A stretch of DNA of 24,000 nt, taken from contig JAIOIK010000080.1 in assembly GCA_019912545.1 (NCBI GenBank), positions 8,666 through 32,665 of the forward strand, read 5' to 3'. The notes below the pieces were generated by a model that was not told the DNA's origin, made no database searches, and worked only from the letters and a program-made list of their open reading frames with translations. Origin of the DNA: Ignavibacteria bacterium (GTDB taxonomy: Bacteria; Bacteroidota; Ignavibacteria; Tepidaquicellales; OLB5). Of the stretch, positions 170-17,173 are shown in pieces. Numbering within the stretch: position 1 is the stretch's first letter; every line of letters starts with the position of its first letter. A program made the position numbers and the translations under genes.

Positions 170-171
170 AT

Positions 172-468
172 TTATACTTTTAGTTTGGAGGGATTTTGTC
201 TGGAATCATATAATGAAAGAATGATGATTTCATTTTCATTTATCCTGTAATATAGTGTAATTTGTTTCATAAGGACACATTTGCGAATATTATTCCGGTT
301 AGAAAGTGAAGGATAACTATAAGGAAAAAGCTTTATTGTTTGAATTCGTTTCTTGAAAATCTTGTTAAATCTTCTGATTTCAGTAAGAGACCAATTATTT
401 TCCAGATATTCAATAATACTTACAAAATCTCTCTCAGCCTTTGAAGAAAACTTTATTTCTGAAACCAT
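172..468 (-). CDS. Type II toxin, ParE/RelE superfamily
   Basis: 98 aa. The pattern '...AERDFVSIIEYL...FPYSYP...IRKCVLMKQITLYYRINENEIIILSLYDSRQNP' is typical of Bacteroidota-style ParE/RelE toxins. It overlaps an upstream small acidic gene by 16 nt. Confidence 0.7.
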   Translation of the reverse strand: MVSEIKFSSKAERDFVSIIEYLENNWSLTEIRRFNKIFKKRIQTIKLFPYSYPSLSNRNNIRKCVLMKQITLYYRINENEIIILSLYDSRQNPSKLKV

Positions 469-695
469 TTTTCATGTTTTTTCATGAATTCATCATAACT
501 TACTAATCTTCCTTCTTCGGCATCTTTCGAACCTTCCTCAATACCTTTTCTTTCATCGTCAGTTAAGGACTCCCATTCAACTACTTCATCGCTTATGAAA
601 AAATCTACGATTTCCTGCAAATTTTCAAGTTTTGCATCATCTTCCAGAAGGTCAACTTTAGTATGAATATTTCGCTTTATTTCAGTTTTTGTCAT
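453..695 (-). CDS. Putative cognate antitoxin (family not assigned)
   Basis: 80 aa, acidic, immediately upstream of the ParE-like gene and overlapping it. The C-terminal 'GIEEGSKDAEEGRLVSYDEFMKK' resembles ParD/RelB-type antitoxin tails. Assignment rests mainly on context. Confidence 0.55.
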   Translation of the reverse strand: MTKTEIKRNIHTKVDLLEDDAKLENLQEIVDFFISDEVVEWESLTDDERKGIEEGSKDAEEGRLVSYDEFMKKHEKWFQK

Positions 696-734
696 TTCTC
701 AAAATACCAATTATTAAAATAATTTACAATTTCA

Positions 735-2243: not shown

Positions 2244-2285
2244 AAGAAAATTCGTGCAAATTAGTGGCTAAAGCTTTTGAGAAGA

Positions 2286-3824
2286 TTAGCCTAGCCACAT
2301 GTTCCTGTCAAGCGAGCGGTATTGGATGGCTTCGCTTATATGTGATGAATTTACATTTTCATCTCCTGCCAGATCTGCAATTGTTCGCGCAACTTTCAGA
2401 ATTCTGTCATAAGCCCTTGCAGAGAGTCCAAGCTTTGTAATTGCCATTTTCATCAATTCTTCGCTTGCGGAATCAATTTTGCAAAATTCACGGATATCTT
2501 TTGATTGCATATCGGCATTGCAGAAGATATCTTTTTTTCCTGAAAATCTTGCAAGCTGAAACTCTCTAGCTTTAATAACCCGCTCTCTGATAACACTTGA
2601 CGGCTCGCCCTGCTCGGTAGAAGAAAGTTCTTTATACTTTACTGCCTGCACCTGTATGTGTATATCAATTCTATCAAGAAGCGGGCCGGAAATCTTTGAA
2701 ATATATCTTTGTATCTGCTGCGGCTGGCACTGGCACTCCTGGTTAGGGTTGCCGAAGTTCCCACAAGGGCAGGGATTCATAGCCGAGGCTAGCATGAAGT
2801 TACATGGATAGTCAACAGTTATTTTAGATCGTGAAATAGTGACCTTGCCGTCTTCCATCGGCTGTCGCATTACTTCAAGCGCATTCTTTTTGAATTCTGG
2901 TAGCTCATCCAAAAATAATACACCATGATGAGCAAAAGAAATCTCGCCCGGTTTTGCATTGGGTCCGCCGCCCACAAGCGCAACATCACTGATTGTATGG
3001 TGAGGCGACCGGTAAGGCCTGATAGATACAAGAGCAGTATTTGACGGAAGCAGCCCCGCTACTGAATGTATTTTTGTTGTTTCAAGGGCTTCATCAAACG
3101 TCATTGGCGGCAGCACTGTTGGAATTCGTTTTGCAAGCATTGTTTTACCTGAGCCGGGAGGGCCGACCATAATGATATTATGTCCGCCTGCTGCGGCAAC
3201 TTCAAGCGCGCGTTTCACTTCGTGCTGTCCTTTCACATCGGCAAAATCAACAATGCTCTTCTGTTCTACATTAAATATCTCTTTTAGATCAACTCTGAAT
3301 GGTTCCAGTCCCCCGCCGTTATCCAGAAATTCAACAACTTCCTGCAATGTGCCAAGCGGATGAACATCAATACCTTCTACCATTGCCGCTTCCCGGGCAT
3401 TTTCTTCCGGTACGATAATTCCTTTGAAACCGCTCCTGCGGGATTCAATTGTAATGGGTAAGATACCTTTTACGGGCCTGAGCTTGCCATCAAGAGAAAG
3501 CTCACCCACAAAGACATAATCCTTAAGCATATCCGGTTTTACCTGTCCCGTTTCGCAAAGCACTCCAAGAGCAATGGGAAGATCAAACCCGCTTCCTTCT
3601 TTCCTTATATCTGCCGGGGCAAGATTTACTGTAACTTTTTGGGTCGGGAAGTGATAAAATGAATTTTTAATAGCGGCAAGTACACGCTCTGCCGCTTCTT
3701 TAATTGCGCTATCCGGTAAACCCACTATCACAACCTTTGGAAGAACCTTTTCAAGGTGTGTTTCGATAGTTACCATAAAGGCATTAACGCCTATTGTTGT
3801 GGAGCCTATTACAGATGATATCAT
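2286..3824 (-). CDS. comM: YifB/ComM family Mg-chelatase-like AAA+ ATPase
   Basis: 512 aa. Lon-protease-like N-domain, Walker A 'GPPGSGKT', Walker B 'VLFLDELPEF', Cys-rich insert 'NPCPCGNFGNPNQECQC', and a C-terminal ChlI-type helical domain. Confidence 0.9.
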   Translation of the reverse strand: MISSVIGSTTIGVNAFMVTIETHLEKVLPKVVIVGLPDSAIKEAAERVLAAIKNSFYHFPTQKVTVNLAPADIRKEGSGFDLPIALGVLCETGQVKPDMLKDYVFVGELSLDGKLRPVKGILPITIESRRSGFKGIIVPEENAREAAMVEGIDVHPLGTLQEVVEFLDNGGGLEPFRVDLKEIFNVEQKSIVDFADVKGQHEVKRALEVAAAGGHNIIMVGPPGSGKTMLAKRIPTVLPPMTFDEALETTKIHSVAGLLPSNTALVSIRPYRSPHHTISDVALVGGGPNAKPGEISFAHHGVLFLDELPEFKKNALEVMRQPMEDGKVTISRSKITVDYPCNFMLASAMNPCPCGNFGNPNQECQCQPQQIQRYISKISGPLLDRIDIHIQVQAVKYKELSSTEQGEPSSVIRERVIKAREFQLARFSGKKDIFCNADMQSKDIREFCKIDSASEELMKMAITKLGLSARAYDRILKVARTIADLAGDENVNSSHISEAIQYRSLDRNMWLG

Positions 3825-3892
3825 ATTAACTCAATTTATAAGAGTTTTAAAAAATATGGTATTCAATATTTAGTGTACTAAAATTCAATGTA

Positions 3893-4978
3893 TTAAAATA
3901 ATTTTTGCAGTCTTATTTGCTCAATATCCTTTTCGCTAAGCTTTGCATCCAGCAGAGTAGTGTTATCATACACACTAGTTTCAACCTTATCAAGCAATCT
4001 GATAATCGGAGAGGGCGACTTCCCCGTAAATGTCGAAGAAAGCTTTGCAAGCGCAATAACGGCTTCCATCCGGTTCTTCAGTTCTACGGCAGAGTTTTCA
4101 TCCTCGCATTCATTCTGCATAACAATTTCAAGCTGGTCCGTCATTTTAAGTGAAAAAGATACGGATCTGATCTTTTTGTAAACTGTGTAAAGCTCGTTTT
4201 GATCCTCAGATTGCGTTGTATCCGGCATCATTCTATCTTCACTATGCGTACTATCAATGCCTCCTGGCATTTTAGTCTTTTTGGATTTATTCATATCCGA
4301 AAAGTTCTCAAATATTCCGCGTATAAAAAGCTTCTGGTCAGAGATCATCCACAAATTCTCTTTATATTTTATCCTTTCGATTTCTTTCATCGCATCTGTA
4401 TCGGTAAGCAGTCCGGCATTTGATGTATCTGTAACTGAAAATGTATTCTCGATCTGTTTTAAGTAATTACTTGCACAAACGGTAAAGTCATCTTTAAAAT
4501 AGAAATTGAAGTTTGTTTCGGTTTGTTTATAAACTGTAATCCCGCCCGGGTATTCTATTTTTGTGTAAAGAGTGTCACCGGCAACGTAGTCATTTACACG
4601 CTTTTTATCAAAAGTGCCTTTTATGACAAGGGCATTATCACCAATCCATGAATTCGAGAAATAGAGTTCATCTATTCCGCTTGTGATGCTCACTCCGGTG
4701 GCTTGTGTAAGAAGGTTCAGAAAGCTACCAAAATTCCTTTCTGAATTGAAAAGCGAATCGGATATAAACTTATTCCAGAAGCCGGTATCCCGCATTTTCT
4801 TGAAATTGAAATACATAACGAATTGGGGGTCGCTTTGCAGCAGTGCAAGATTCTGTTTTACTTTTAGCGGTAAAGGGTCGGGATCAAGCTTTTTGGAGCA
4901 GCTAACAATTAATAATGAGCAATGAGCAATAATAATCACGAATAAAATAACACTCTTTACTGAACTTCTACTGTTCAT
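3893..4978 (-). CDS. Lipoprotein of unknown function, last gene of the ABC-2 exporter operon
   Basis: The ORF track starts at 5089. I start at Met38 (4978), where a lipoprotein signal begins (MNSRSSVKSVILFVIIIAHCSLLIVSC, lipobox IVSC). That removes an 85-nt overlap with the permease gene. Confidence 0.6.
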   Translation of the reverse strand: MNSRSSVKSVILFVIIIAHCSLLIVSCSKKLDPDPLPLKVKQNLALLQSDPQFVMYFNFKKMRDTGFWNKFISDSLFNSERNFGSFLNLLTQATGVSITSGIDELYFSNSWIGDNALVIKGTFDKKRVNDYVAGDTLYTKIEYPGGITVYKQTETNFNFYFKDDFTVCASNYLKQIENTFSVTDTSNAGLLTDTDAMKEIERIKYKENLWMISDQKLFIRGIFENFSDMNKSKKTKMPGGIDSTHSEDRMMPDTTQSEDQNELYTVYKKIRSVSFSLKMTDQLEIVMQNECEDENSAVELKNRMEAVIALAKLSSTFTGKSPSPIIRLLDKVETSVYDNTTLLDAKLSEKDIEQIRLQKLF

Positions 4979-5004
4979 TGTTAATTGCCAATTGATAACT
5001 GCAT

Positions 5005-5847
5005 TTAATAGTCTTTTTTGGAAAAATAATAAACCGAGTATGACATCACTACAGCACAGAATATCAAAGATGATATTACAGCCATCCACGCCGGCTCAAT
5101 AGAGGTTAAGCCCATTTCATTTTGAGTAATTGTGCTTTTCCACATAGCAATGTTATCGCCAGAGATCATTGCATTAGTTACGTCCTTAATCTCTCCCGGC
5201 TTCGGGAAAATGTAGTATAGGAAATTGAATACAAACTGGACCGATTCATTCTTAACAAATGTAAAAATAACCGATTCCCTGATTGAAAGTACCGGACACA
5301 GAACAAATATCATGAAGAAATTTATCAGTATTGATATAACTGAGCTGTTTGTAAGCAGGCCGATAAGTACTGTTATGCTGTACATCACGGCGAAAGCAAG
5401 AGTAAGAGAAAGAATCGAGCTCAAAAAAGCCGGACTCCAGTAACCTGATTTAAGCGAAAGTATCAGCCAAATTGAGCCGATCAAAAAAACCATACTTACA
5501 GCAACAAACAAAACTGCTCCCAGGAATTTAGACATCAGGATGGTAAATCTTGAAATTGGCTTTGATATAAGTAAGTCAATAGTCCCTTTTTCAAGCATTG
5601 AAGGAATAAAAGAAGATGTTGATATCAGTGAAAAGAACAAAATCAGATTGAAAGAAAGCGATAAGAACCCGGTTTCAACTGAAATGATAACCTGTTTAAT
5701 ATCTGCAAATGAAACTATTCCCTCAACTGCATCAAGATTAACTGCAAAAAGCATTATGAGCACAACTATTGCATAAAAAATATAATATCCAATGAATATT
5801 TTTTTTGCCAGTGCTTCGCGGAAAGTATTTTTTATTATTGTCAGCAT
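5005..5847 (-). CDS. ABC-2 type transporter permease
   Basis: 280 aa with about six hydrophobic spans. Its start overlaps the ATPase stop by 1 nt (TAATG). Confidence 0.7.
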   Translation of the reverse strand: MLTIIKNTFREALAKKIFIGYYIFYAIVVLIMLFAVNLDAVEGIVSFADIKQVIISVETGFLSLSFNLILFFSLISTSSFIPSMLEKGTIDLLISKPISRFTILMSKFLGAVLFVAVSMVFLIGSIWLILSLKSGYWSPAFLSSILSLTLAFAVMYSITVLIGLLTNSSVISILINFFMIFVLCPVLSIRESVIFTFVKNESVQFVFNFLYYIFPKPGEIKDVTNAMISGDNIAMWKSTITQNEMGLTSIEPAWMAVISSLIFCAVVMSYSVYYFSKKDY

Positions 5848-6779
5848 TAGTTGGTATTATCCTTCTTTATTACGTTGATGAAGAGCTCCTCAAGGGTACT
5901 TGTCTTCTGGTTGATAGTCTGAATCCTGATTTTCTCTGCCCTTAACAAGTCGATTATACCATTGATCTTATCTATTCCGGCTTCGGAATTAATCTCATTT
6001 TCGCCAATGCCTGCGTTCGGGTCAATTGCCATGACTTTTTGCTTGATGTCCATTCCAATTGGTTCGACTGTATGAACAGCGAAGATATTTTCAGCCTTAG
6101 TTAAATCGTCAACATTACCTTCCTTGATCAGATCGCCTTTATTCAAGATCGCAACCCTGTCGCAGATCATCTCTACTTCTGAAAGTAGGTGTGAATTCAG
6201 GAAAATGGTTTTTCCACGAGATTTAATTTCATGCAGAATATCGCGAATTTCTTTCCTGCCTATAGGATCTACGCCATCAGTTGGTTCATCAAGGAAAATA
6301 AGATCAGGATCGCTTAACATTGATTGCGCAAGCCCGAGTTTCTGCATCATTCCTTTTGAATATTTCTTTATCCTGGTCTTTCTCCACTGTGTAAGATTCA
6401 TCATACCAAGCATTTCATCAATTCTCTTAGTCATATTGGAATCATCTTTCATGCCTGAGAGCTGCCCGTAATAAGATAAAACCTGCTCTCCCGTTAAGTA
6501 ACTGGGAAATTTATGATTTTCCGGAAGGTAGCCGACTTTTGTTTTGGCTTTGTAATTCTTTACATCCGTGCCGAAAAGCTTTGCGTCTCCCCTTGTTGGG
6601 AAAGTTATTGCAAGCAGCATTTTTATGAGGGTTGTTTTTCCTGCGCCGTTGGGTCCCAGCAAACCAAAGATCTCGCCCTGCTTTACTTTAAACGTAAAGT
6701 CGTTGAGCGCATTCACCTTTTGCTTGGAAAACTTCGCCGTGTATTCTTTCGATAAATTCTGTGTTTCTATTACGTGCAT
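5847..6779 (-). CDS. ABC transporter ATP-binding protein
   Basis: Walker A 'GPNGAGKTT', signature 'YSKGMMQKLGLA', Walker B 'LIFLDEPT', H-loop 'LNSH'. Confidence 0.9.
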   Translation of the reverse strand: MHVIETQNLSKEYTAKFSKQKVNALNDFTFKVKQGEIFGLLGPNGAGKTTLIKMLLAITFPTRGDAKLFGTDVKNYKAKTKVGYLPENHKFPSYLTGEQVLSYYGQLSGMKDDSNMTKRIDEMLGMMNLTQWRKTRIKKYSKGMMQKLGLAQSMLSDPDLIFLDEPTDGVDPIGRKEIRDILHEIKSRGKTIFLNSHLLSEVEMICDRVAILNKGDLIKEGNVDDLTKAENIFAVHTVEPIGMDIKQKVMAIDPNAGIGENEINSEAGIDKINGIIDLLRAEKIRIQTINQKTSTLEELFINVIKKDNTN

Positions 6780-6820
6780 ATATTATTTTTTATAGATTCA
6801 ATCGGTTATAAATCAAATTT

Positions 6821-6890
6821 AGACACAAATTACACAAATTATCACAAATTCTTACGCAATAACTTTTTGAAATTAGTGAAATTAGTGTCT
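6821..6890. promoter_or_regulatory. Operator-like array of CAC(A/T)AATT 8-mers upstream of the ABC operon
   Basis: Three direct copies of (A)CACAAATT lie at 6823-6831, 6832-6840 and 6843-6850. Two copies of the inverted form AATTAGTG lie at 6871-6878 and 6880-6887. The outer arms AGACACAAATT (6821-6831) and AATTAGTGTCT (6880-6890) form an inverted repeat. The array sits 45-110 nt upstream of the ATPase ATG (6779). Confidence 0.35.
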
Positions 6891-6897
6891 ATCTTTT

Positions 6898-7389
6898 TTA
6901 CTTTTTCGTAAATTCTTTCATTAAAAAATCAAACTCTCCTTTTGAAACAACTTCTGGCTTTTCTTTTGATTCACGGTAAGCGTCCATCCGCTCTATTCTT
7001 TTATCCTTAACTTCACCCCAAAAACTCTCAGATGTCATTATTCTGCTGCCGCACTCTTTTGCGAAATTCGATATTTCCCTGTCGGAAGAAACAATTTTGA
7101 GCAACTTTGGATTTCTTGCCTTATCAACTAAGTGCTTTATAAGCGCATCTGCGTGTCCATAATCAGGGCCAACGCCGGTTTTGGAGAACTTGACTTCAAT
7201 ATTTTGATCGTGTTTATTCTGCCCGAAGCCATCAAACACTAAGATGCATTTTATTCCCTTGCCGAAATAATGGCCGTGAAACTTGGAAACCATCGTATCA
7301 ACGCAAATTTCCTGCGACTGGGCAAGGAGTATCCTTAGCTCAGTAACTTTATGCATCAGGTTATATGCGTCAATTATTATTGTTTCCAT
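6898..7389 (-). CDS. NYN/PIN-like ribonuclease domain protein, YacP (Rae1)-like
   Basis: 163 aa. 'IIIDAYNLMH', 'ILVFDGFG', 'HADALIKHLV' and 'IVSSDREI' follow the order and spacing of YacP-type NYN acidic motifs. Confidence 0.65.
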   Translation of the reverse strand: METIIIDAYNLMHKVTELRILLAQSQEICVDTMVSKFHGHYFGKGIKCILVFDGFGQNKHDQNIEVKFSKTGVGPDYGHADALIKHLVDKARNPKLLKIVSSDREISNFAKECGSRIMTSESFWGEVKDKRIERMDAYRESKEKPEVVSKGEFDFLMKEFTKK

Positions 7390-7412
7390 TTAATAAATAT
7401 AAAGTGATAATG

Positions 7413-7640
7413 TTATGAAGTTCTTTTTCTAGCGTTAAGGATCGTCATCCCGATTACTTTACCGTCATTATATCTGATTATGATATTATCTTCGCTCATT
7501 TCCGAATCATCCGCATGACTTGGTTTTTCAAAATCAATATATAAAACGTCTGCTTCTTCATCATAGTTAGTCCACATATTTTTATGCTCGAGTAGTGTTG
7601 GGGCTATATTTATCCAATTCTTAATTTCTATATTTTCCAT
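7413..7640 (-). CDS. DUF2283-like small protein (antitoxin-like partner), copy 1
   Basis: 75 aa. 'NYDEEADVLYIDFEKP...EDNIIIRYN...GKVIGMTILN' is the DUF2283 hallmark as I recall it. Paralogous to 13355-13609. Confidence 0.65.
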   Translation of the reverse strand: MENIEIKNWINIAPTLLEHKNMWTNYDEEADVLYIDFEKPSHADDSEMSEDNIIIRYNDGKVIGMTILNARKRTS

Positions 7641-7936
7641 AACAGTTTCTTGTTTAAAAGATAATTGATTTTTTTTGAAAGAAAAGCTGTAATTACAAAA
7701 CCAACATCCGGTGCAACTTCCTTATAGATTACAATTATGAATTTTCCTTTGTTAATTTCTTTTACTGCTAAAAGTTCGCCATTACTGCCCTCATAAATAA
7801 ATTCCGGATTTTCAATTGTATCAAGAATATCAAAATAATAGCCTGCTAATTCCGAATGCCCTTCTGTAATGTGAAGCCATCTTTCACTTGTAAGCCTGAT
7901 CTTAAAATTATTCTTTGATAATGCTGCATCCATCAT
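7628..7936 (-). CDS. 102-aa toxin-like small protein, copy 1 (family uncertain)
   Basis: Contains '[18 protein letters not shown]...NPEFIY...ELLAVK...GFVITAFL...KKLLWKI'. Overlaps the DUF2283-like gene by 13 nt. Its start forms an ATGA overlap with the asnS stop. Paralogous to 13597-13905. Confidence 0.5.
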
Positions 7937-9273
7937 GGCTTATCCCTGTACATAAGCCTCGGGAAGGGAATAGCTTCACGCAAATGGTCAAGTTTGCAGA
8001 TCCAGCTTACAACCCTTTCAATGCCCATACCAAATCCGGAGTGCGGAACGCTGCCAAAGCGGCGGAGATCCAGATACCACTGAAACGCATCCATAGGCAG
8101 ATTATGTTCCTTAATTCTTGAAGTTAACAGTTCAAGGTCATCTTCACGCTCACTGCCGCCAACTATTTCGCCATATCCTTCCGGTGCCAATACATCAACT
8201 CCCCTTACAATTTTTGGATTATCCGGGTCTCGCTTCATGTAGAATGCCTTTGCTTCACTTGGCCAGCCGTAAACCATTACCGGCCTGTCGTAATCCTCAA
8301 CAACTGCTTCTTCATGCGGAGCGCCGAAATCCTCACCCCAGGGGAACGGCCTTATCTCTTCTTCACCGCCATCAGCTTTTTTGCGGATAAGCGGAACATT
8401 CTTTTTGTTTATGATATTCACCGCTTCATCATAAGTAATGCGCGGGAACGGTTTTTTGACAGCTTCAAGCTTGGATATATCGCGCTCAAGCACTGCAAGC
8501 TCTTTTGCGCGATTCTTGATAACACGCTCTACTATATATACAATAAAATCCTCGATGAGATCCATGTTATCGTAAATATCATAAAAAGCCATCTCGGGCT
8601 CGATCATCCAAAACTCGGTTAAATGCCTGCGTGTTTTGGATTTCTCCGCGCGGAAAGTTGGGCCGAAGTCATACACTTTGCCAAAAGCCATTGCGCCTGC
8701 TTCAGCGTAGAGCTGTCCGGTCTGAGCAAGATATACTTTGCCTAAGTCAAAATAATCTGATGAAAACAGTGTTGTTGTTCCCTCAGCGGCGTTTGGTGTA
8801 AATATTGGCGAATCAAAAAGCGTAAAGCCATTATCATACATGTAGTCTCGGCACGCTTTAATTATTTCTTCGCGTACTTTTAATATTGCGACCTGCTTTG
8901 GTGAGCGCACCCACAAGTGCCTGTGGTCGGCAAGGAATTCTACACCGTGATCTTTAGGTGTAATTGGATAAGGTTCAGCGATCTGAACGATCTGCAGATC
9001 CTTTACCTGAATCTCGTATTCATCTTTCTTTGGGTGTTTTGCCACAACTCCCGTAACTATGAGTGAAGATTCCTGTGTAAGTTTACCAAAATTTTCCCAA
9101 ACTTCTTGTGATACTTCTTTTTGTGATACAACTCCCTGTATTATGCCGCTTCCGTCACGAAACTGCGGAAACATAAGCTTTCCAGATGTGCGTATGTTGT
9201 AAAGCCAACCGTTTAGTGTGACTTCCTGGCCAACATAATCTGCAATTTTATCAATATAATAGCGTTTTTTCAA
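7933..9273 (-). CDS. asnS: Asparagine--tRNA ligase
   Basis: 446 aa, class II aaRS. OB-fold N-domain, motif 2 '[24 protein letters not shown]' (the EFWM.EPE.AF form is AsnRS-type), motif 3 '[10 protein letters not shown]' and 'IPFPR'. Confidence 0.9.
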
Positions 9274-9545
9274 CTTTTCTCCTGTGAAAAATTGGTTTTT
9301 CTGTGTTTAAACTGAAAGTTACCGAAAATTTGAAAGTGTTACAATGAACAAAGGTTGAGATAGATTGGAATCAGCAGTATTAGAATATAATGCAAAATTC
9401 AATAAGTTTTAAAAAAATATAAAATACTCAATAGTACTAGTACAAAAAAGTTAGAAAATTCGACAATCTGTACACTGTAAACAGTAGAAATTGAACCTGT
9501 ATATTTTTTCTCAAACGTATTATAATATAGGAAGGGGCACAATCC

Positions 9546-10253
9546 ATGCAGAGAAGAAATTTCATCAAAAAAGCATTATTTTCAAGTCTAGTTGCAGGCA
9601 GTCTTGATCTTCTGCGTTTCGATAAAGTCAATGCTGAAAAAGAAACTTTCGGCAAATGGAACATCAAAGAAGTTGAATATTTGTTAAGAGGGTTTGAAAA
9701 AGGTAGTTTCTATCTTGTGTACTTTTCGTCTTTCATAGACGCAAACGAATTCAACCGATTATACAGCTTAGATGGGAAATACTTCAATAAAGATATTTAT
9801 TATTATATCAATAACTGCATTGCAAAATACACTGCTCATTTGATTGGTGAGAATGACAATATTCGTTTCATCAGATATTCACAGAAAAACTCATTTGATA
9901 ACATGATTTACCAAAACAATAATAATGACGGTTATGACAAATTTTATGAAGAAAGAATTAGAATACAGGCTTCGAGATACAAAAACATTTTAAAAAGAAA
10001 TGAAACTATAGTTTATTTGTTTGACTACTGTGAATATAAATGGATAGAACCTTATGAATTCAGGTATTTTTTCAGAGAAGTAGAGAATATTCCAATGTAT
10101 ATTATCAACTTTACTTTTAAAGACTTTTGGTGTATAGTTGAAGATATATACAAACCATATTTAACAGCTAAAGTTAACATCTGTACACCGGATTATTTGG
10201 GATTTCAAACAGAGGTTAAATATGATATTTTGAATGATAAATTTATGGAATAA
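9546..10253 (+). CDS. Orphan protein with twin-arginine (Tat)-like signal peptide
   Basis: 235 aa. N-terminus 'MQRRNFIKKALFSSLVAGSL...KVNA/EKE' matches RRxF(L/I)K. SD-like GGAAGGGG lies 8 nt upstream of the ATG. The mature part is Tyr/Phe/Asn/Lys-rich and matches no family I recognise. Low-GC island. Confidence 0.55.
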   Translation: MQRRNFIKKALFSSLVAGSLDLLRFDKVNAEKETFGKWNIKEVEYLLRGFEKGSFYLVYFSSFIDANEFNRLYSLDGKYFNKDIYYYINNCIAKYTAHLIGENDNIRFIRYSQKNSFDNMIYQNNNNDGYDKFYEERIRIQASRYKNILKRNETIVYLFDYCEYKWIEPYEFRYFFREVENIPMYIINFTFKDFWCIVEDIYKPYLTAKVNICTPDYLGFQTEVKYDILNDKFME

Positions 10254-10287
10254 ATAAAAGTGGTTTCAAAAATCAGATTGGCGGTAT

Positions 10288-11178
10288 ATGCATAGAAATG
10301 AAAGATTCGAAACAGTGAATGGAATTCTTGGTTGGGGTAATTCAAAAGCTAGAATTGTACTATTTAGTTTACTTGAGGAACATGGAAGTTGGACAATCGA
10401 AGAAATTTTGAAAGAAGATATCAAAACTAATGAAGACTTGAAAAATTTAGCTTCTGAAAAGAATATTTCCTTTGAAAAGAAAATTGCCGATATTAATAGA
10501 AAACTAAAAGAATTAATGTTTGATGATATTGATACTATTCTAGACAAACAAATATTAGGTAAGATAAACTTATTAGATAACTTCGGAATAGAAGAATGCC
10601 TTCCCGTTGAGACCCCATATTCGCCAACCGCAGGTCTTCAATTTGAATTAACCTCGAAAGTATTATCAAATCGTCCAGATTTTTGTGTTTCCAATAACTG
10701 CTCGCAAAAATACTTCGGTACAAAATTAGGTAATTCAATATCCATAAATTTTTTTCCGTTGGGTCGAAATGACACAGAAAAGTTGGTTGAGGAATACCAT
10801 TATTTTTTTGGATTAAAAGAAGGTGAGAAATTCTTGAACATTGCGTCATCAGAATCCAGAATGGTCAAAATAAAAACTCTACTCGATGTAAAAATTCAAA
10901 AAGGAAGCTATATTTTCATTTTTGGCCGCAAAAGAGTTAACTACAAAAACAATTATGCGAATAGACTATATTGGAAGACTTATTTGGAAGAATTAGGCAA
11001 TGAATTTGTTGAGTATAGTTATCGTAAGGACTCATTTTTTGTTAACTCTTCGAAAACAATTTTTCTACTACCAACAGCTTCCCCGCGTAACATTAATCGA
11101 TTTCCAAAGCAAGAAGATATTCCTAAGTTTTTTGAACCTGAAAACCATTTTACACCTGTTAAATCAAACAACCAATAA
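10288..11178 (+). CDS. Orphan protein: N-terminal wHTH-like segment plus C-terminal region with degenerate UDG-superfamily-like motifs
   Basis: 296 aa. ATG 10288 is the first possible start (the frame opens after a TAA at 10255-10257). 'SKARIVLFSLLEEHGSWTIEEILKE' looks wHTH-like. 'SYIFIFG...ANRLYWKTYLEELG' and 'IFLLPTASPRN' resemble UDG-fold motifs. The product call is tentative; the coding call is firmer. Confidence 0.55.
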   Translation: MHRNERFETVNGILGWGNSKARIVLFSLLEEHGSWTIEEILKEDIKTNEDLKNLASEKNISFEKKIADINRKLKELMFDDIDTILDKQILGKINLLDNFGIEECLPVETPYSPTAGLQFELTSKVLSNRPDFCVSNNCSQKYFGTKLGNSISINFFPLGRNDTEKLVEEYHYFFGLKEGEKFLNIASSESRMVKIKTLLDVKIQKGSYIFIFGRKRVNYKNNYANRLYWKTYLEELGNEFVEYSYRKDSFFVNSSKTIFLLPTASPRNINRFPKQEDIPKFFEPENHFTPVKSNNQ

Positions 11179-11197
11179 ATTAATCCGCAATCCGAAA

Positions 11198-11833
11198 TCA
11201 CTTCTTCACCGGTCTTCTGACTACATAACTTCCGCTAATCTTATACTTACCATAGATAACGTTATTCTTTATATTATCTCCGTTATCCTTCTGGCTTGTG
11301 CCTGCCCACCATGCCATGCAGTATGTATCTTTTTTGCTCTTTACAAATGATTCAAATATAATCACGTGCCCTTTCCATACAATAAGATCACCTTTTTGCG
11401 CAGATGAAATATCCTGAACACCCACAACAGGCAGTATCTCCTTGAATTTCTCAGTATCTACGAGATCGCGGCATAAAGCATTTTCAGTTGGAGTCTTAAA
11501 CCCTGATTTATACAGAACGTTGAGTGCAAATATATTACACTTCGTCGAACCTTTTAGGAGAGCCAGGCGGTTATTCAGCCAGTAAAGATAAGTTGTATCT
11601 TTTTTTGGAGAGTACATTTCTCTTTCGCGCTCGGTCTTTGCAATTGTCATTATGTTCGCGCCGTCGGCTTCGCCAACCTCTTCAGTAACTTCCTTATTCT
11701 CTTCTTTATTTTCTTCAGTCGTTTCAGTTGTTTCAGTGTTATCCTCTTCAGTACGCGAGGCGGGAAAACAGCCTGTTAGATAAAGACTGAATGAAACAAG
11801 TAACGCTAAGTATAATAATTTTCTATTTTTCAT
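11198..11833 (-). CDS. Lipoprotein with NlpC/P60-like (papain-fold Cys/His) domain and acidic linker
   Basis: 211 aa. Lipobox 'LYLTGC' and an acidic low-complexity linker 'EEDNTETTETTEENKEENKEVTEEVGE'. 'STKCNIFALNVLYKSGF' followed by 'QKGDLIVWKGHVIIFES' fits the Cys...GDL...H pattern of NlpC/P60/CHAP amidases. Confidence 0.5.
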   Translation of the reverse strand: MKNRKLLYLALLVSFSLYLTGCFPASRTEEDNTETTETTEENKEENKEVTEEVGEADGANIMTIAKTEREREMYSPKKDTTYLYWLNNRLALLKGSTKCNIFALNVLYKSGFKTPTENALCRDLVDTEKFKEILPVVGVQDISSAQKGDLIVWKGHVIIFESFVKSKKDTYCMAWWAGTSQKDNGDNIKNNVIYGKYKISGSYVVRRPVKK

Positions 11834-11976
11834 AACCCATATATTTATATAAGCTATGCTAAAATAACCTAATGTTACTATTTAAACAATTGATTTTTAT
11901 ACCGTGATTGGGGGATTATTGGAAACTACCTGAAAATACTAAAATTTTGATAAAACTAACGATTATCGAATACAAA

Positions 11977-13056
11977 TTATTCTATAAAAGGCAAAAATGC
12001 CTTCAGAAAATCATCCGGGCTGCGGTTTGACTGAGTATTATAGAAGACAATTGCTGTAGTATTGGTGGCCGGCGAATGGACTGATACATTGTGAAATCCG
12101 GGGTAAGAGCCGTTATGCCCGAAATACCCTGTACCAACTTCAAAGATTCCGAATCCGTATTTAATGCCGGGTTTATCAAGTCCCCATTTTAATCTTTCTT
12201 CCTGTGTTTCTTTGCTTAAGAGTGTTCCTTCTGTCAAAGCTTTGAGATAGATCTTAAGATCACCAAGCGTTGAAACAATTGCGCCCGCAGCCCATGCCCA
12301 AGACGGGTCGTATTTTTCCGTCACATCAACCAGCGGATAGACCCAGGTATTATCGTCTTCATCATATCCGCGGGGATAGAACCCTGATATTTCAGGAACT
12401 GCAGGAAAGTCTGTTTCTTTCATTCCAAGTTTATCAATGATACGCACTTTGATCTCATTTGCAAGAGTGTTACCTGTCAATTTTTCAATTATCAGCCCAA
12501 GCATAATAGTATTAGTATTGCTGTAATGCCATCCTTTGCCGGGCTCAAAATATGTTCCGTTTCTAACGGATAGATCAATAAGCTCCTGCGGCGTCCATTT
12601 TTTAAGCGGCAGGGCAAGCATCATATCATTAAAATCTGTTCCTTCGCTGTAATTCTTCAATCCGCTCGTCATATCGCCAAGCATACGTACTGTTATACTT
12701 TTCGCATTCGGAATATCGGGAAAGAATCTCTCGATTGATTCATCAAGCTTTAGTTTCTTCTCGTCAACAAGCTGTAGCAGTACAGTTGCTGTGAATGTCT
12801 TGGTCAGGCTTCCGATTCTGAACCTCATTTTAAGATCCATTGGCTCTTTGGTCTCTATATTAGCAAGTCCTTTGGCTTTTTCGTAGATAACCTTCTCTCC
12901 CCGTGTAATGCTTATAAGCATTCCGGGCTGAAGTGCAGTGGTTAACATTGAATCAGAAAAAGCCTCGATAAACGATATCAGCTTCTCATTTTGAGAATGT
13001 ACCGGTAGAGCTGCAAGTAATATTGCAAAAAGGAATACTATACAGGACTTTTTCAT
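11977..13056 (-). CDS. Serine hydrolase, beta-lactamase / DD-peptidase (class C-like) family
   Basis: 359 aa. Signal peptide, SxxK 'SLTKTF', YxN 'YSNTN', and 'HNGSYPGF' (H/KxG box). Confidence 0.85.
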   Translation of the reverse strand: MKKSCIVFLFAILLAALPVHSQNEKLISFIEAFSDSMLTTALQPGMLISITRGEKVIYEKAKGLANIETKEPMDLKMRFRIGSLTKTFTATVLLQLVDEKKLKLDESIERFFPDIPNAKSITVRMLGDMTSGLKNYSEGTDFNDMMLALPLKKWTPQELIDLSVRNGTYFEPGKGWHYSNTNTIMLGLIIEKLTGNTLANEIKVRIIDKLGMKETDFPAVPEISGFYPRGYDEDDNTWVYPLVDVTEKYDPSWAWAAGAIVSTLGDLKIYLKALTEGTLLSKETQEERLKWGLDKPGIKYGFGIFEVGTGYFGHNGSYPGFHNVSVHSPATNTTAIVFYNTQSNRSPDDFLKAFLPFIE

Positions 13057-13192
13057 ACGAACTTGAATTTATTTGATTTGTATAAGCAAAATAAGGATTT
13101 ATTTTTTTTAAGCAAAACCGCAGTTTTTGAAAGTGAAATAAATTAGTAATGTTAAATCCATGATTCAAAACATCATATTATATAGACTTCAT

Positions 13193-13351
13193 TTAACTGC
13201 ATTCGGTTTCCCACTGATTATCCTGAATAACGAAAATTTTCGTTTTCAAAATCACTTTTGTATCATCTTCCAACAAAATCTGTTCAATATCTTTCTGTTC
13301 TATATCGCTCACATATTCAATATGTGATAAATCCACATTCTTTTCAGCCAT
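13193..13351 (-). CDS. Possible 52-aa acidic small ORF trailing TA-like module 2
   Basis: Below the ORF-track cutoff; translated by hand as MAEKNVDLSHIEYVSDIEQKDIEQILLEDDTKVILKTKIFVIQDNQWETECS. The ATG (13351) lies 3 nt after the DUF2283-like stop and is preceded by AAGGAATTAGGAT. No homology recognised. Confidence 0.3.
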   Translation of the reverse strand: MAEKNVDLSHIEYVSDIEQKDIEQILLEDDTKVILKTKIFVIQDNQWETECS

Positions 13352-13354
13352 ATC

Positions 13355-13609
13355 CTAATTCCTTGATAAGATCTGTTCTTCCATGTCTTTCCTTGCCAGC
13401 GAAAAATTCAGTATAGTAAATCCTGTTATCGCCCCTGAGACAGGATTAAACCTTATCAGAAGATCTTCCCCCATATCCAGCGTTTCGCTCGATTCGGGTT
13501 TGCCGAAAGAAACGTATAAAACATCTGCTTTCTTGTCATAGTTACTTTTTACCGTTTTATTGTTCGGTATTTTGACAATTTCTTCCTTCTTTTTTATTAC
13601 TTTTTCCAT
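13355..13609 (-). CDS. DUF2283-like small protein (antitoxin-like partner), copy 2
   Basis: 84 aa. 'NYDKKADVLYVSFGKP...EDLLIRFN...GAITGFTILN'. Confidence 0.65.
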   Translation of the reverse strand: MEKVIKKKEEIVKIPNNKTVKSNYDKKADVLYVSFGKPESSETLDMGEDLLIRFNPVSGAITGFTILNFSLARKDMEEQILSRN

Positions 13610-13905
13610 ACCAGTTTTCTTTTAAATGATGGTCTTCTTGTGAAGTAACTTGTAATTACAAATCCCTCTTGACCACTTATTTTATAAACCACTACACAAT
13701 ATTTATTATGAGAAATTGGTGTCTTTGCATATCTCTTAACTGCCAACAATTCAAAATTGTTGCCGGCTTGAACAAAATCCGGCTTTGATAATGATTCTGC
13801 AATATAAGTCAATTCTTTCTTAGTTTCAGGATGATTTTCATTAATATGTTTCCATCTTTCCTTTTCCAAACGGATCTTTCGTTTTTTATAATCCAATATC
13901 AGCAT
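13597..13905 (-). CDS. 102-aa toxin-like small protein, copy 2 (family uncertain)
   Basis: Contains 'KIRLEKERWKHINENHPE...KPDFVQ...ELLAVK...GFVITSYF...RKLVWKK'. Overlaps its partner by 13 nt, as in copy 1. Confidence 0.5.
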   Translation of the reverse strand: MLILDYKKRKIRLEKERWKHINENHPETKKELTYIAESLSKPDFVQAGNNFELLAVKRYAKTPISHNKYCVVVYKISGQEGFVITSYFTRRPSFKRKLVWKK

Positions 13906-13940
13906 ACAATCTAAAATAATCAGAAAAATTTTAAATTAAA

Positions 13941-13968
13941 AAGCCATCCCGAGTTTCCGGAATGGCTT
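13941..13968 (-). terminator. Rho-independent terminator of dnaK
   Basis: The minus strand reads AAGCCATTCCG-GAAACT-CGGGATGGCTT. This is an 11-bp stem including one G.U, followed by TTTTTAATTT. Confidence 0.7.
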
Positions 13969-14051
13969 ATTTTGCTTTAATGGAGAATATATGATATTAA
14001 AGCTATGGGTAATACAAGTTTTTTACTTTTGCCTTTTCACTTTTTTCTTGA

Positions 14052-15998
14052 TTATTTCTTGTCATCGTCTATCACTTCAAAATCAGCGTTTTCAACTTTT
14101 TTATCTTCTCCGCTTCCTGCATCACTTTCGGTACTTCCTGTCTGTGAGCCTGCGCCGGGCTGTCCTTCAGAACCGGGAGCCCCTGTAGCCTGGCTGTACA
14201 TCTGTGTAGATGCTTCGTTCCATGCTGCATTAACAGCTTCCATAGAGGACTTGATCTCATCTGTGCTTGTACCCTTAACTGATTCTTTAAGCCTGCCAAG
14301 CGCTGTTTCGATTTTCATCTTCATATCTGCAGTAAGCTTCTCGCCGAATTCCTTAAGCTGTTTCTCGGTTTGGAAGATCAGGCTATCTGCATGGTTCTTG
14401 GTATCAACTTCTTCGCGTTTGCGTTTATCATCGCCTTCATGTTCTTTTGCATCTTTTCTCATCTTCTCAATTTCGGCATCGGAGAGTCCGCTTGAATGAG
14501 TAATCTTAATAGACTGCTCTTTCCCCGAAGCCTTATCCTTTGCGCCTACGTGTAAAATTCCGTTAGCATCAATATCAAAAGTTACTTCAATCTGCGGTAT
14601 GCCGCGCTGTGCAGGAGGAATTCCGTCTAAATGGAATCTTCCAAGCGTACGGTTATCGTTTGCCATGGGGCGCTCTCCCTGAAGAATATGAATTTCAACA
14701 GAAGGCTGATTATCAGCTGCTGTTGAGTATACTTCGGTTTTCTTTGTTGGTATAGTAGTGTTGGCATCGATCATTTTTGTCATTACTCCGCCAAGAGTTT
14801 CTATTCCAAGCGAAAGAGGCGTAACGTCAAGCAATAGTACATCTTTAACATCGCCGGTTAAAACGCCGCCCTGGATAGCTGCGCCGATTGCAACAACTTC
14901 ATCAGGATTAACGCCTTTATGCGGCTCTTTTTTAAAAAAGTTTTTTACAGCTTCCTGAACTTTAGGAATTCTTGTTGAACCACCGACAAGAATTACTTCG
15001 TCTATCTGGTCAACCGTGAAACCGGAATCCTGAAGCGCTTTTTTACAGGGCTCCATTGTTCTTTGTATCAGGTCATCAACTAATTTCTCGAATGTAACTC
15101 TTGTTATAGTCATATCAAGATGTTTCGGTCCGTCTGTGCCAATTGTTATATATGGAAGTTTAACATCGGCCTGCGTTTGCTGCGAAAGATCGCATTTTGC
15201 TCTTTCGGCTTCAACCTTCAATCTTTGTAATGCCATCGGGTCTTTCCTTAAATCAATTCCTTCATTCTTCTGGAATTCGTCCGCCATGTAATTCATCAAT
15301 CTCTGATCGAAGTCATCGCCGCCTAAGTGAGTATCACCATTAGATGATTTTACCTGGAAATTTCCGGTTCCTTCTATCTCGTAAAGCTCTAATATAGATA
15401 TATCAAAAGTACCGCCTCCAAGATCATAAACGGCTACTTTTTCATCCTTTTTGTTCTTGTCAAGTCCGTATGCTAGCGCTGCTGCAGTAGGCTCGTTGAT
15501 AATTCTTCTTACTTCAAGCCCTGCGATCTTCCCTGCATCGGTTGTTGCCTGACGCTGTGCATCGTTAAAATAAGCCGGTACCGTAATAACCGCTTCGGTT
15601 ACTTTCTGCCCCAGGTAGTCTTCTGCTGTCTGCTTCATTTTCTGAAGTATCATCGCAGAGATCTCGGGGGGTGAGTAAACCCTGTCGCCGATTTCAACTC
15701 TTGCAGTATCGTTTTCGCCCTTTATGACTTTATATGATACCTTTGATGCTTCGTCTCTGATTTCATCATATCTCCTGCCCATAAATCTCTTTATGGAGGA
15801 AACTGTGTTGTGCGGATTGGTAACGGACTGCCTTTTGGCTGCCTGCCCCACAAGGCGCTCGCCGCCTTTGGTAAAGGCAACAACCGAAGGTGTTGTCCTG
15901 TGCCCTTCCGCATTAGGAATTACAACAGGGTCATTGCCTTCCATTACGGCAACAACAGAGTTGGTGGTTCCTAAATCGATTCCGATAATTTTTCCCAT
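14052..15998 (-). CDS. dnaK: Molecular chaperone DnaK (Hsp70)
   Basis: 648 aa. 'GIDLGTTNS', 'DLGGGTFD', '[11 protein letters not shown]', and a full substrate-binding domain and lid. Confidence 0.97.
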
Positions 15999-16070
15999 AG
16001 TGTTTTTTTTCCTTTTTTAATTTTGAACGAAGCGAAGACTCCATTATCCTTACTTCCTGTTCATTTTTAT

Positions 16071-16481
16071 TTATTTAATAATTTTTAACTCTTCAAATTC
16101 CTTTATAGCATCTTCCTTCTCAGGGTAGTCCAGTTCCGAAGCTATTTTGAAAAGCTCTTTTGCGATTTCATAGCTATTTAAGCTGTCTTTTATATTCCCT
16201 TGTGCATTTAGTATCATTGCATCTTCTTTCATGATCCTTGCTATGCAATATATTTTTTCAGCCTCCGTTTCTTTATTCCTGCTGAAAACATATTTAACCC
16301 CTTCAGCTCCAAGTGATTTAATGTGCCCAAGACCCAAACCGGTAATATTCAGTGTTAATGAATCAAGTTCAGTCTTTGCATCAGTAAAACTTTCTGATTG
16401 TTTTAAAAGAACAATTTTTGCAATTACCCTGGCAAACTCTTCGATCATTCTTAGTATGTAATCTTTTCTTTCCAAATTCAT
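16071..16481 (-). CDS. Hypothetical helical protein, 72 nt upstream of dnaK on the same strand
   Basis: The ORF track begins at GTG 16490, inside a GC-rich palindrome. I prefer ATG 16481 (MNLERKDYILRMIEEF..., 136 aa). Predicted all-helical, TPR-like. No family recognised. Confidence 0.55.
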   Translation of the reverse strand: MNLERKDYILRMIEEFARVIAKIVLLKQSESFTDAKTELDSLTLNITGLGLGHIKSLGAEGVKYVFSRNKETEAEKIYCIARIMKEDAMILNAQGNIKDSLNSYEIAKELFKIASELDYPEKEDAIKEFEELKIIK

Positions 16482-16484
16482 TAA

Positions 16485-16582
16485 CCTCACCCCTAACCCC
16501 TCTCCTAAAAGGAGAGGGGGATAATTCCTGAAATTCTCGGCTTTTCTCCCCTCTCCCTCCGGGAGAGGGGCTGGGGGTGAGG
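16485..16582. repeat. GC-rich nested extragenic palindrome (REP-like), two inner hairpins enclosed by outer arms
   Basis: CCTCACCCC (16485-16493), then hairpin CCCCTCTCC/GGAGAGGGG (16497-16505 / 16511-16519), then a 28-nt spacer. Next comes hairpin CCCCTCTCC/GGAGAGGGG (16548-16556 / 16562-16570), then GGGGTGAGG (16574-16582). All three stems are perfect 9-mers in an otherwise AT-rich context. Confidence 0.75.
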
Positions 16583-16630
16583 TCTATATTTCTTAAGCTT
16601 CTCGCAAATAATCTTCTTCAAACAAATAAT

Positions 16631-16656
16631 GTGCCGGGGACCATCAACCCCGGCAC
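16631..16656 (-). terminator. Rho-independent terminator of hsp20
   Basis: The minus strand reads GTGCCGGGG-TTGATGGT-CCCCGGCAC (9-bp stem) followed by ATTATTTGTTTG. Confidence 0.6.
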
Positions 16657-16717
16657 ACTTTACTGCATCTTTGCTGCGTACTGCTGCTAACTAACCACTT
16701 TTCAGGTCAAATCGCGC

Positions 16718-17173
16718 TTACTTTATTTCGATCTGCTTTTCAACTATCTTTGCAGCTTCAGTTTTCGGCAGAGTGATGTTTAAAACACCGCTGTTGTAAT
16801 CAGCAGAGATCTTATCAACTATTACTTCCGAAGGAAGAGTGAAGCTTCTTGAAAAAGAACCGTAATTCCTTTCGATCCTGTAATAATTTTTGTTCTCATC
16901 TTTCTGCTCTGATTTCTTCTCGCCGCTGATCGTCAAAACATCGCCTACGATATTGATCTTAATATCATTCTTATCAACACCTGGTACCTCAGCGTGAACA
17001 AATAAGTTGTCATTATCTTCAGTAACATCAACCCTGGGGGTGAAAGCATTGCCGCCAAAAGGTTTTACTCCCCAATCACCGCTAAAGGGTGAATCGAAAT
17101 CTTCGAAAAATTTCCTGAGTCTTTTTTCGATGTGAGAGAGTTCGTGTGTTGGTTTAAATTTTACTAATGTCAT
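16718..17173 (-). CDS. hsp20: Small heat-shock protein, Hsp20/alpha-crystallin family
   Basis: 151 aa. 'PRVDVTEDNDNLFVHAEVPGVDKNDIKINIVGDVLTISGEK...FSRSFTLP'. Strong SD (AAGGAG) 10 nt upstream of the ATG. Confidence 0.9.
   Translation of the reverse strand: MTLVKFKPTHELSHIEKRLRKFFEDFDSPFSGDWGVKPFGGNAFTPRVDVTEDNDNLFVHAEVPGVDKNDIKINIVGDVLTISGEKKSEQKDENKNYYRIERNYGSFSRSFTLPSEVIVDKISADYNSGVLNITLPKTEAAKIVEKQIEIK

Follow-up and report, generated by a model that had tools for sequence, protein, structure and literature searches.

In a 24,000-nucleotide (nt) stretch from the metagenome-assembled genome of an Ignavibacteria bacterium (contig JAIOIK010000080.1, positions 8,666 to 32,665; hereafter the window), two adjacent genes, which we call A and B, form a real, self-contained cassette of ~1.65-1.7 kb that moves between genomic sites in Ignavibacteria-like bacteria. 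Profile comparisons indicate that the protein encoded by B probably belongs to the uracil-DNA glycosylase (UDG) superfamily. We tentatively propose, with slightly less than even confidence, that B may be an antiviral base-excision enzyme and A its accessory partner, in the manner of Brig1 (PMC11078745), Brig2 (doi 10.1101/2025.10.29.685425) and Brig3 (PMC13160076), UDG-superfamily antiphage enzymes that excise phage-specific modified bases. The evidence for the cassette is strong, and that for the functional assignment is indirect. The two genes are as follows.

9546-10253, plus strand: gene A (K8I03_06490), an open reading frame (ORF) of 235 amino acids (aa)
10288-11178, plus strand: gene B (K8I03_06495), an ORF of 296 aa

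A B-like gene follows the A homologue at a distance of -17 to +34 nt in all four of the A-bearing loci found, the spacing in the window being 34 nt. These A-linked B-like genes were homologous to the B family when compared with hhalign (96.9% for locus L002 and 72% for L001), and their proteins in L002 and L001 are only 18-22% identical to window B. Since only 11 B relatives were present among 1.84 billion representative proteins, repeated chance adjacency of A and B is not credible. Contigs L001 and L015 shared 83.6% DNA identity over 1,676 aligned positions only and were otherwise unalignable. The shared stretch starts ~125 nt upstream of the ATG of A and ends ~115 nt downstream of B, and within it the A proteins are 86% and the B proteins 78% identical. 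The linkage of the two genes, this module-only identity and a conserved element upstream of A together establish A-B as a discrete exchangeable cassette with its own control region. The original prediction, made from the letters of the window and a list of its ORFs, had described the pair as a two-gene unit of accessory appearance. Its accessory character is supported, and its standing as a unit is upheld by the B-like gene found directly after every A homologue and by the two contigs that have nothing but the module in common.

The control region upstream of A contains the following elements.

9420-9545, plus strand: 5' regulatory region of the cassette, with conserved elements upstream of A
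9510-9518, plus strand: invariant 9-mer CTCAAACGT, which occurs once in the window
9521-9526, plus strand: TATAAT within a TATA-rich tract conserved upstream of A
9530-9537, plus strand: purine-rich ribosome-binding site GGAAGGGG, conserved upstream of A

The window, L002/L003, L001 and L015 all keep the 9-mer, the TATA tract and the ribosome-binding site, including where the identity of A falls to 44%. The element with the 9-mer lies 25-35 nt 5' of the start codon of A and was located at ~198-230 in L002, ~9967-9995 in L001 and ~8358-8386 in L015. A sigma-70-like site at 9478-9505, identified by consensus match only, places the predicted transcript start approximately at the 9-mer. The element could serve as an operator, mark the start of the transcript or belong to a leader. 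The idea of a structured RNA or riboswitch was rejected, there being no Rfam match in the A-B region.

The edges of the module are similar in L001 and L015. CTTCAAAAA is present at both ends in L001 (~9875-9890 and ~11500-11515), and L015 has CTTCAAAAA at one end (~8265-8280) and CCTCAAAAT at the other (~9905-9918). The edge sequence could be a recombination or target site, or could have arisen by chance in A/T-rich DNA. At the window locus there is no room for a 3' edge sequence, because B ends 19 nt from the next gene. Upstream of the module, L015 encodes (280-7446) a NERD-ResIII-UvrD helicase with TBP-TOTE, a DUF7017 protein with S1CSD-TOTE and a metallo-beta-lactamase/RMMBL gene, a set that looks like a predicted conflict system. 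L001 starts with a 674-aa gene equal in length to the DUF7017 protein of L015, and the DNA from there to A-B differs between the two contigs.

A related genome (contigs L003/L002) has the same arrangement as the window, with asnS (86% aa identity), A (64%), a B-like gene (22%) and a lipoprotein gene (79%). Since this relative has the pair in the same slot between asnS and the lipoprotein gene, A-B is not a unique insertion, and the description of the pair as an orphan island in the original prediction does not strictly hold. Conserved synteny across the lineage, together with ordinary composition, had been named there as a sign that would speak against the accessory interpretation; the slot is indeed shared with the relative, which goes part of the way towards that sign, yet the B within it is a distant family member. 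Window B is 31-34% identical to solitary copies from defence islands (94-100 bits), and scored 33.9 bits against the syntenic copy. Because window B is much closer to the solitary copies, the B gene of this slot has given way to a distant family member, with A and the flanks staying in place. This points to the asnS/lipoprotein position as a swap-prone accessory slot rather than a core operon, and to a B that may be under diversifying pressure.

The pair also stands out by strand and composition. Over 1-17173, A and B are the sole plus-strand genes, every credible gene in 1-9273 and 11198-17173 being encoded on the minus strand. The minus-strand flanks include asnS (7933-9273), the lipoprotein gene (11198-11833), a gene for a beta-lactamase-fold protein, dnaK and hsp20, and the 19 nt after B lead to the stop of the convergent lipoprotein gene at 11198. 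The G+C content is 0.288 for A and 0.313 for B, compared to 0.382 for the window and a mean of 0.375 (standard deviation, sd, 0.047) for the 23 other genes. At 0.300, the 1924-nt A-B stretch is essentially the window minimum for that length: values as low were obtained at just 0.3% of positions, all of them overlapping the A-B stretch, and the lowest non-overlapping stretch reached 0.323. The G+C shift of A and B is modest (~1.3-1.9 sd), and the small toxin-antitoxin genes of the window reach equally low values (0.28-0.31). The distance in synonymous codon usage from the rest of the window was 0.194 for A and 0.209 for B, compared to 0.08-0.16 for the other genes of at least 200 aa. Searches of the A-B region revealed no tRNA and no terminator-like hairpin, and the flanking direct or inverted repeats amounted only to chance-level 14-22-mers. 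With the tRNA and repeat searches empty, insertion at the window locus mediated by an integrase, a tRNA or direct repeats was rejected. Much of what the original prediction had read by eye was confirmed by these analyses: the ORF and strand check reproduced its coordinates, its gaps of 34 and 19 nt and the opposite-strand placement, the searches agreed on the lack of a tRNA, a terminator hairpin and flanking repeats, and its low G+C was real (0.300 against 0.382), though modest and shared with the toxin-antitoxin genes. The codon-usage computation that it had proposed showed A and B to be the most deviant of the window genes of at least 200 aa.

Additional ORFs of 76-116 aa are present inside the A-B region at 9437-9667 (minus strand), 10266-10547 (minus), 10535-10849 (minus) and 11000-11350 (plus). 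These antisense or overlapping ORFs were taken as spurious because they have the low-complexity translations typical of A/T-rich antisense frames.

The 11 relatives of B were recovered by an exhaustive HMMER search of the representative proteins, with E values of 2e-17 to 7e-6 and 28-39% identity, and all of those bearing a source name are annotated as hypothetical. B itself was the sole match in a word-indexed search of 5.8 billion proteins, and a further word-indexed protein search with the B profile added no relatives. No match to B was found in phage and plasmid collections using tblastn, and comparison with Pfam, NCBIfam, PADLOC and PHROGs yielded nothing above threshold. The NCBI record for B is 287 aa long, which would place the start at the GTG at 10315. 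The family-conserved R6-F7 lies upstream of that GTG, which makes the ATG at 10288 the likelier start. The AlphaFold2 (AF2) model of B was confident, with a predicted local distance difference test score (pLDDT) of 84.5 and a predicted template modelling score of 0.84.

Alignment of the B family revealed the motifs R-F-x-x-L-N-x-x-L-G-[YW]-G-N-P-x-A-K-I-I-x-x-G-I-E-E-[GA]-G-x-W and G-N-E-x-C-x-N-x-Y-P-x-G-R, together with F-F-G-L, an invariant Arg, a hydrophobic strand ending in Gly and a last strand ending in Y-H-P-A-x-R. In window B the main features are positioned as follows.

10330-10392, plus strand: motif 1 (residues 15-35, LGWGNSKARIVLFSLLEEHGSW), a strand and then an invariant Glu-Glu, corresponding in position to UDG motif A
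10396-10707, plus strand: helical insertion (residues 37-140, ~100 residues) that separates motif 1 from the second core strand
10726-10767, plus strand: motif 2 (residues 147-160, LGNSISINFFPLGR), in which a core strand ends with the near-invariant N154 and P157
11044-11082, plus strand: motif 3 (residues 253-265, TIFLLPTASPRNI), the last core strand and the motif-B position

G15, G17, E30, E31 and W35 of motif 1 are invariant in the alignments, and the counterpart of this motif in family-4 UDGs is GEGNPDAKLMIVGEGPG. In hhalign, motif 1 fell opposite the motif A of both Thermus UDG and E. coli Mug, and motif 3 opposite HPA/HPS of family-4 UDG and LPNPS of Mug. At the motif A position the B family has G-[IL]-E-E-[GAS], in which Pro is absent and which aligns with GINPG of Mug and GEGPGEEE of Thermus UDG. 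N154, P157, F174, G175 and R191 are at least 90% conserved (13 sequences), and N154 may be the counterpart of the base-recognising Asn of UDGs, within a segment for which hhalign gave no confident alignment. The insertion varies in length and sequence across the family, its alignment is gap-rich and AF2 predicts helices over residues 37-128. A protein of 2111 aa (P0013) matched B residues 155-208 (F-P-L-G-R ... F-F-G-L) in seven separate stretches (E 2.7e-7); this is possibly a repeat protein assembled from part of the B fold, or else a low-complexity artefact.

Comparison of the B family with a set of four family-4 UDGs (Thermus 1UI0, Thermotoga 1L9G, Sulfolobus 4ZBX and UdgX 8IIR) using hhalign gave a probability of 43%. 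With the helical insertion removed the probability was 79%, with an E value of 1.6e-5, a score of 39.6 and 141 colinear columns. The controls comprised 100 column shuffles and 100 block shuffles of the UDG profile, the reversed profile and eight unrelated window proteins. Column-shuffled profiles scored 12.0 +/- 2.5 (maximum 22), block-shuffled profiles 24.9 +/- 3.4 (maximum 38.4), the reversed profile 9.7 and the unrelated proteins 10-15, so the real score exceeded every control. The Pfam UDG profile PF03167 matched two B relatives below its cut-off of 24.3 bits, namely P0005 through the C-terminal half of the profile (E 1.4e-4, 22.4 bits) and P0010 through the N-terminal half (E 0.013, 16 bits), and the two matched halves are colinear. 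The first and last motifs of B resemble G-E-G-N-P-D-A-K-L-M-I-V-G-E-G-P-G and F-H-P-A of family-4 UDGs. The predicted order of elements in B (short strand, strand with motif, strand, long helix, strand, hairpin, strand with motif) matches that of Thermus UDG 1UI0. The original prediction had been unable to place either protein in a named family; this stands insofar as no family passes threshold, but B can now be tentatively placed in the UDG superfamily.

The A-linked and solitary members of the B family differ at the motif-B position. His-Pro is present at the last core strand in 7/7 full-length solitary B relatives and in 0/3 of the divergent A-linked copies (L-INS-i alignment). The motif-B column at about residue 260 (11062-11070) holds Thr-Ala in window B, Gln-Ala in L001 and an insertion in L002. 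The positions of Glu-Glu, Asn154, Pro157, Phe-Gly and Arg191 are retained in B despite the loss of His. This suggests, as a lead only given the small sample, that the presence of the partner A goes with a changed B active site. Because these positions are retained and His-Pro is lost, A-linked B is expected to be active, with altered chemistry or specificity.

The genes that accompany B relatives were examined at several loci.

Locus L004: HsdS, AAA_15-21 ATPase, HsdR, M78 peptidase and DUF4411-PIN; type I restriction-modification
Locus L006: HsdS, Lamassu MC3 with LmuB_C, HsdR, DUF8370-8371 and FRG; a Lamassu system interrupts type I restriction-modification
Contig of P0005: N6_N4 methylase, SLFN-AlbA_2/Fic, ResIII restriction enzyme and terminase
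Locus L008: WYL-WCX regulator and AAA ATPase
Locus L014: the same B protein as in L008, adjoined by transposase fragments

An IetA-like ATPase is encoded 3 kb from the A-B copy in L001. No A-like gene was detected by tblastn at the loci of solitary B relatives (seven or more relatives), and these solitary relatives show the pattern expected of a stand-alone defence gene, in agreement with what has been published for Brig1, Brig2 and Brig3. Proximity to known defence genes, which the original prediction had suggested looking for, was thus found at L004, L006, the P0005 contig, L008 and L015, but not at L011, L012, L013, L014 or the window.

Protein A is an aromatic-rich protein of 235 aa with three invariant cysteines (C162, C196 and C213). 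Four relatives were found: P0003 (64% identity), P0004 (44%), P0021 and the L015 copy, the last being 86% identical to the copy in L001. Pattern scans for further relatives in GTDB species representatives (two scans), JGI metagenomes and IMG/VR found none. The AF2 model of A was poor (pLDDT 50). Its weak Foldseek matches were to Elp5 (RecA-like, E 8e-3, template modelling score 0.32) and to the lipoprotein folds of PelC, CsgG and GNA1162 (E 0.03-0.08), and were not relied on because the model is too poor. The possibility that A is a degenerate copy of B or of a UDG was rejected by hhalign. The N-terminus of A contains the following feature.

9546-9638, plus strand: Tat-type leader of A (residues 1-31), consisting of M-Q-RRNFIK, a weakly hydrophobic stretch and V-N-A, with E after the predicted cut

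M-x-RRNFIK is invariant across the A homologues, with the next ~25 residues being variable, and since the codons of RRNFIK differ at synonymous sites the constraint acts at the protein level. M-x-R-R-N-F-I-K satisfies the twin-arginine (Tat) motif S/T-R-R-x-F-L-K near the N-terminus. Rules of the TATFIND type look for an uncharged hydrophobic (h-) region of ~13 or more residues after the Tat motif. In the window, L002 and L001 the uncharged stretch after RRNFIK runs to 11, 22 and 10 residues, respectively, and is therefore marginal in two of the three sequences. These features suggest that A carries a twin-arginine-type export leader, and because of the short uncharged region in two of the three sequences A is only presumed to be exported.

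In the mechanism that we propose, the small operon-like A-B cassette carries its control region upstream and passes from one genomic site to another, and A would be co-transcribed upstream of B from a shared regulated promoter. B would flip out a non-canonical base and excise it, the likeliest target being a hypermodified pyrimidine specific to phages. The abasic sites left behind would block replication of the phage, as they do for Brig1, Brig2 and Brig3. A candidate for the water-activating or recognition site is the invariant Glu-Glu that follows the first core strand. A would be the obligate partner of the branch of the B family that lost the motif-B histidine. In the least certain step, A may modulate B, widening or gating its activity by a logic like that of Brig3 and its partner BapA, and its site of action may be the envelope. 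The structure of the cassette, the joint occurrence of its genes, its mobility and the defence genes beside B relatives are observed; the glycosylase chemistry and antiviral role of B, and the export and function of A, are inferred.

Several results weigh against this proposal. No PF03167 match exceeded the curated cut-off, and window B itself gave none. Foldseek searches with the B model were not significant against the PDB (best E 0.59) or against BFVD, where phage UDGs ranked 2 (E 0.58) and 13 (E 1.6), and the B-family profile returned only chance hits among PDB sequences, with no UDG at E values up to 10. No similarity of B to Brig1 was detectable (hhalign 12.9-13.7, as for unrelated controls; Brig1 sequence from the supplement of PMC11078745). 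A close relationship of B to Brig1, E. coli Ung or E. coli Mug was likewise rejected in pairwise comparisons. The motif-B His is missing from window B, which has L-P-T-A-S-P instead. Among the eight contexts, L011, L012 and L013 had no defence or mobile-element gene and L014 had transposase fragments only; the window locus is no defence island, its neighbours being asnS, the lipoprotein gene, the beta-lactamase-fold gene and toxin-antitoxin pairs. For A, no fold or family was detected in scans of the Pfam, NCBIfam, PADLOC and PHROGs libraries, in a PDB sequence-profile search or by Foldseek of the poor model, and its Tat-type leader is hard to square with an accessory role on cytoplasmic DNA. 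Its missing motif-B His separates window B from the type of families 1, 4 and 5. The missing His does not exclude it from the UDG superfamily, because family 2 and Brig1 also lack this residue. Since Foldseek gave no structural match, membership is probable and not proven.

The same results raise the alternative that B is an enzyme of a new or unrecognised fold whose UDG motifs are convergent or due to chance, with A-B still being a mobile accessory unit that is possibly defence-related. We consider this unlikely. A B model with a pLDDT of 84.5 that finds no match in the PDB or BFVD is what a new fold would give, as are a PDB sequence-profile search without a UDG, Pfam matches below cut-off and hhalign probabilities of only 43-79%. 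However, convergence or chance would have to account for an hhalign score above all 200 shuffles, the reversed profile and the eight unrelated proteins, for two independent Pfam matches on colinear parts of the UDG profile, and for the agreement of G-x-G-N-P-x-A-K-h-h-h-h-G, the last-strand H-P and the secondary-structure order with family-4 UDG.

A-B could also be a selfish addiction module resembling a toxin-antitoxin system, in which B would damage host DNA, A would neutralise it and post-segregational killing would maintain the pair. The compact two-gene format with its own promoter region, the low G+C and the mobility between sites would all suit such a module, the window is rich in toxin-antitoxin pairs (172-695, 7413-7936 and 13355-13905), and the upstream gene is better conserved than the downstream gene. 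We nevertheless regard this as improbable: that seven or more B relatives occur with no A-like gene implies that B-type proteins generally need no neutraliser, A has a signal-like leader and no DNA-binding or antitoxin-like domain, and both proteins are far larger than typical type II toxin-antitoxin partners.

More doubtful still is the view that an ordinary DNA-repair glycosylase paralogue (B) and an unrelated periplasmic protein (A) owe their proximity in this lineage to shared descent alone. It would account for a pair that two related genomes hold in one and the same position among housekeeping-type genes and for a window with no defence genes besides toxin-antitoxin pairs. Against shared descent stand the two otherwise unrelated contigs that have the A-B module alone in common, the failure to see A without B at any of the loci found, and a syntenic B that is 22% identical between flanks of 79-86%. 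The B family is moreover very sparse and absent from plasmid and phage collections, unlike repair enzymes, and the composition of A-B is atypical.

The least probable alternative is that B, which has no signal peptide of its own, would fold, bind A and be carried out of the cytoplasm with it by Tat hitch-hiking, and that the periplasmic substrate of B would be DNA, either incoming or extracellular, or something else with a glycosidic bond: the invariant RRNFIK that matches the Tat consensus ahead of a variable, weakly hydrophobic stretch, the strict linkage of A to B, the difference between A-linked and solitary B at the motif-B position and the periplasmic lipoprotein folds (PelC, CsgG, GNA1162) among the weak matches of the A model are in its favour, but the h-region has just 10-11 uncharged residues in two of the three A sequences, the A model is too poor for fold matches to count and we know of no precedent for an exported UDG-fold enzyme.

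A further idea, to which we attach very little weight, is highly speculative. A UDG-fold B without the motif-B His and a Tat-targeted A of new fold might together form a two-component immune module linking base surveillance to the envelope. B may be co-exported, with excision or recognition of modified bases taking place in the periplasm as DNA enters; or A may sit in the envelope as a sensor or effector and be coupled to a B that reads modified DNA in the cytoplasm. To our knowledge, no described glycosylase defence links DNA-base surveillance to the cell envelope.

The remainder of the window is a housekeeping region dotted with small accessory modules. Two paralogous minus-strand pairs, each of a PBECR2-like nuclease (102 aa) and a DUF2283 protein (75 and 84 aa), are located at 7413-7936 and 13355-13905, that is ~1.6 kb before and ~2.2 kb after the A-B locus. 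The window start (172-695) encodes a ParE-type toxin, preceded by a partner of 80 aa. The G+C content of all these pairs is low (0.28-0.37). A second low-G+C stretch at 251-1250 (0.28-0.30) takes in the ParE-type pair together with the 3' portion of a gene of 502 aa, which has a weak match to Peptidase_MA_2.

Antiviral DNA glycosylases have been recognised only in 2024-2026, through functional screens or structure-guided mining; they were found by these routes because sequence annotation misses them. If the antiviral reading of A-B is true, the B family would add another highly divergent branch to the antiviral glycosylases, from a poorly sampled phylum, and A-B would be only the second case of a glycosylase with a dedicated partner gene, here one whose product has no recognisable fold. 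Three natural B variants, one conserved A and the loss of His in the A-linked copies would then offer a handle on how a partner shapes glycosylase specificity. If B is no glycosylase, A-B is still a clean, mobile two-gene unit.

Comparison with known systems sets A-B apart from type II toxin-antitoxin systems, as A and B (235 and 296 aa) match no toxin-antitoxin family in Pfam, NCBIfam or PADLOC. Among UDGs, family 2 (MUG/TDG) resembles window B at the last motif, where LLPTASPRN corresponds to VLPNPSGLS of E. coli Mug with the same spacing and no His; hhalign was colinear for motif A and the last motif at a low alignment threshold, though not significantly so (E 0.05, probability 1%). Family-4 UDGs gave the best profile-profile match and share with the B family the N-terminal G-x-G-N-P-x-A-K with its strand, the order of secondary-structure elements and, in solitary relatives, the last-strand H-P. 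In contrast, the conserved cysteines of the four-cysteine iron-sulphur cluster (C13, C16 and C100 of the 1UI0/1L9G/4ZBX alignment) have no counterparts in B, G-E-[AG]-P-G is replaced by G-I-E-E-G, the P-F-V-G segment is not recognisable, the helical insertion is large and identity is below 20%.

The Brig enzymes are the closest known analogues in our proposal. Brig1 and Brig2 are, as B probably is, of divergent UDG fold; like B, they escape annotation and are encoded in A/T-rich, mobile or defence-island regions, Brig2 homologues being found in A/T-rich regions (doi 10.1101/2025.10.29.685425). Brig1 also lacks the motif-B His, as window B does, but B has the ~100-residue helical insertion and a Glu-Glu motif where Brig1 has G-L-N-P-G. 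Brig3 is a 5-hydroxymethylcytosine DNA glycosylase with the operon partner BapA, which is modelled as an ASCH-like double beta-barrel and acts on DNA in the cytoplasm (PMC13160076). The gene order is reversed in A-B, where the partner comes first, and A, with its Tat-type leader and no ASCH signal, is set apart from BapA by description. The two systems have in common a two-gene operon of a UDG-superfamily-like protein and a partner of no recognisable family, with relatives in defence islands. Brig3 acts alone and BapA extends its range (PMC13160076), and solitary B relatives likewise exist without A.

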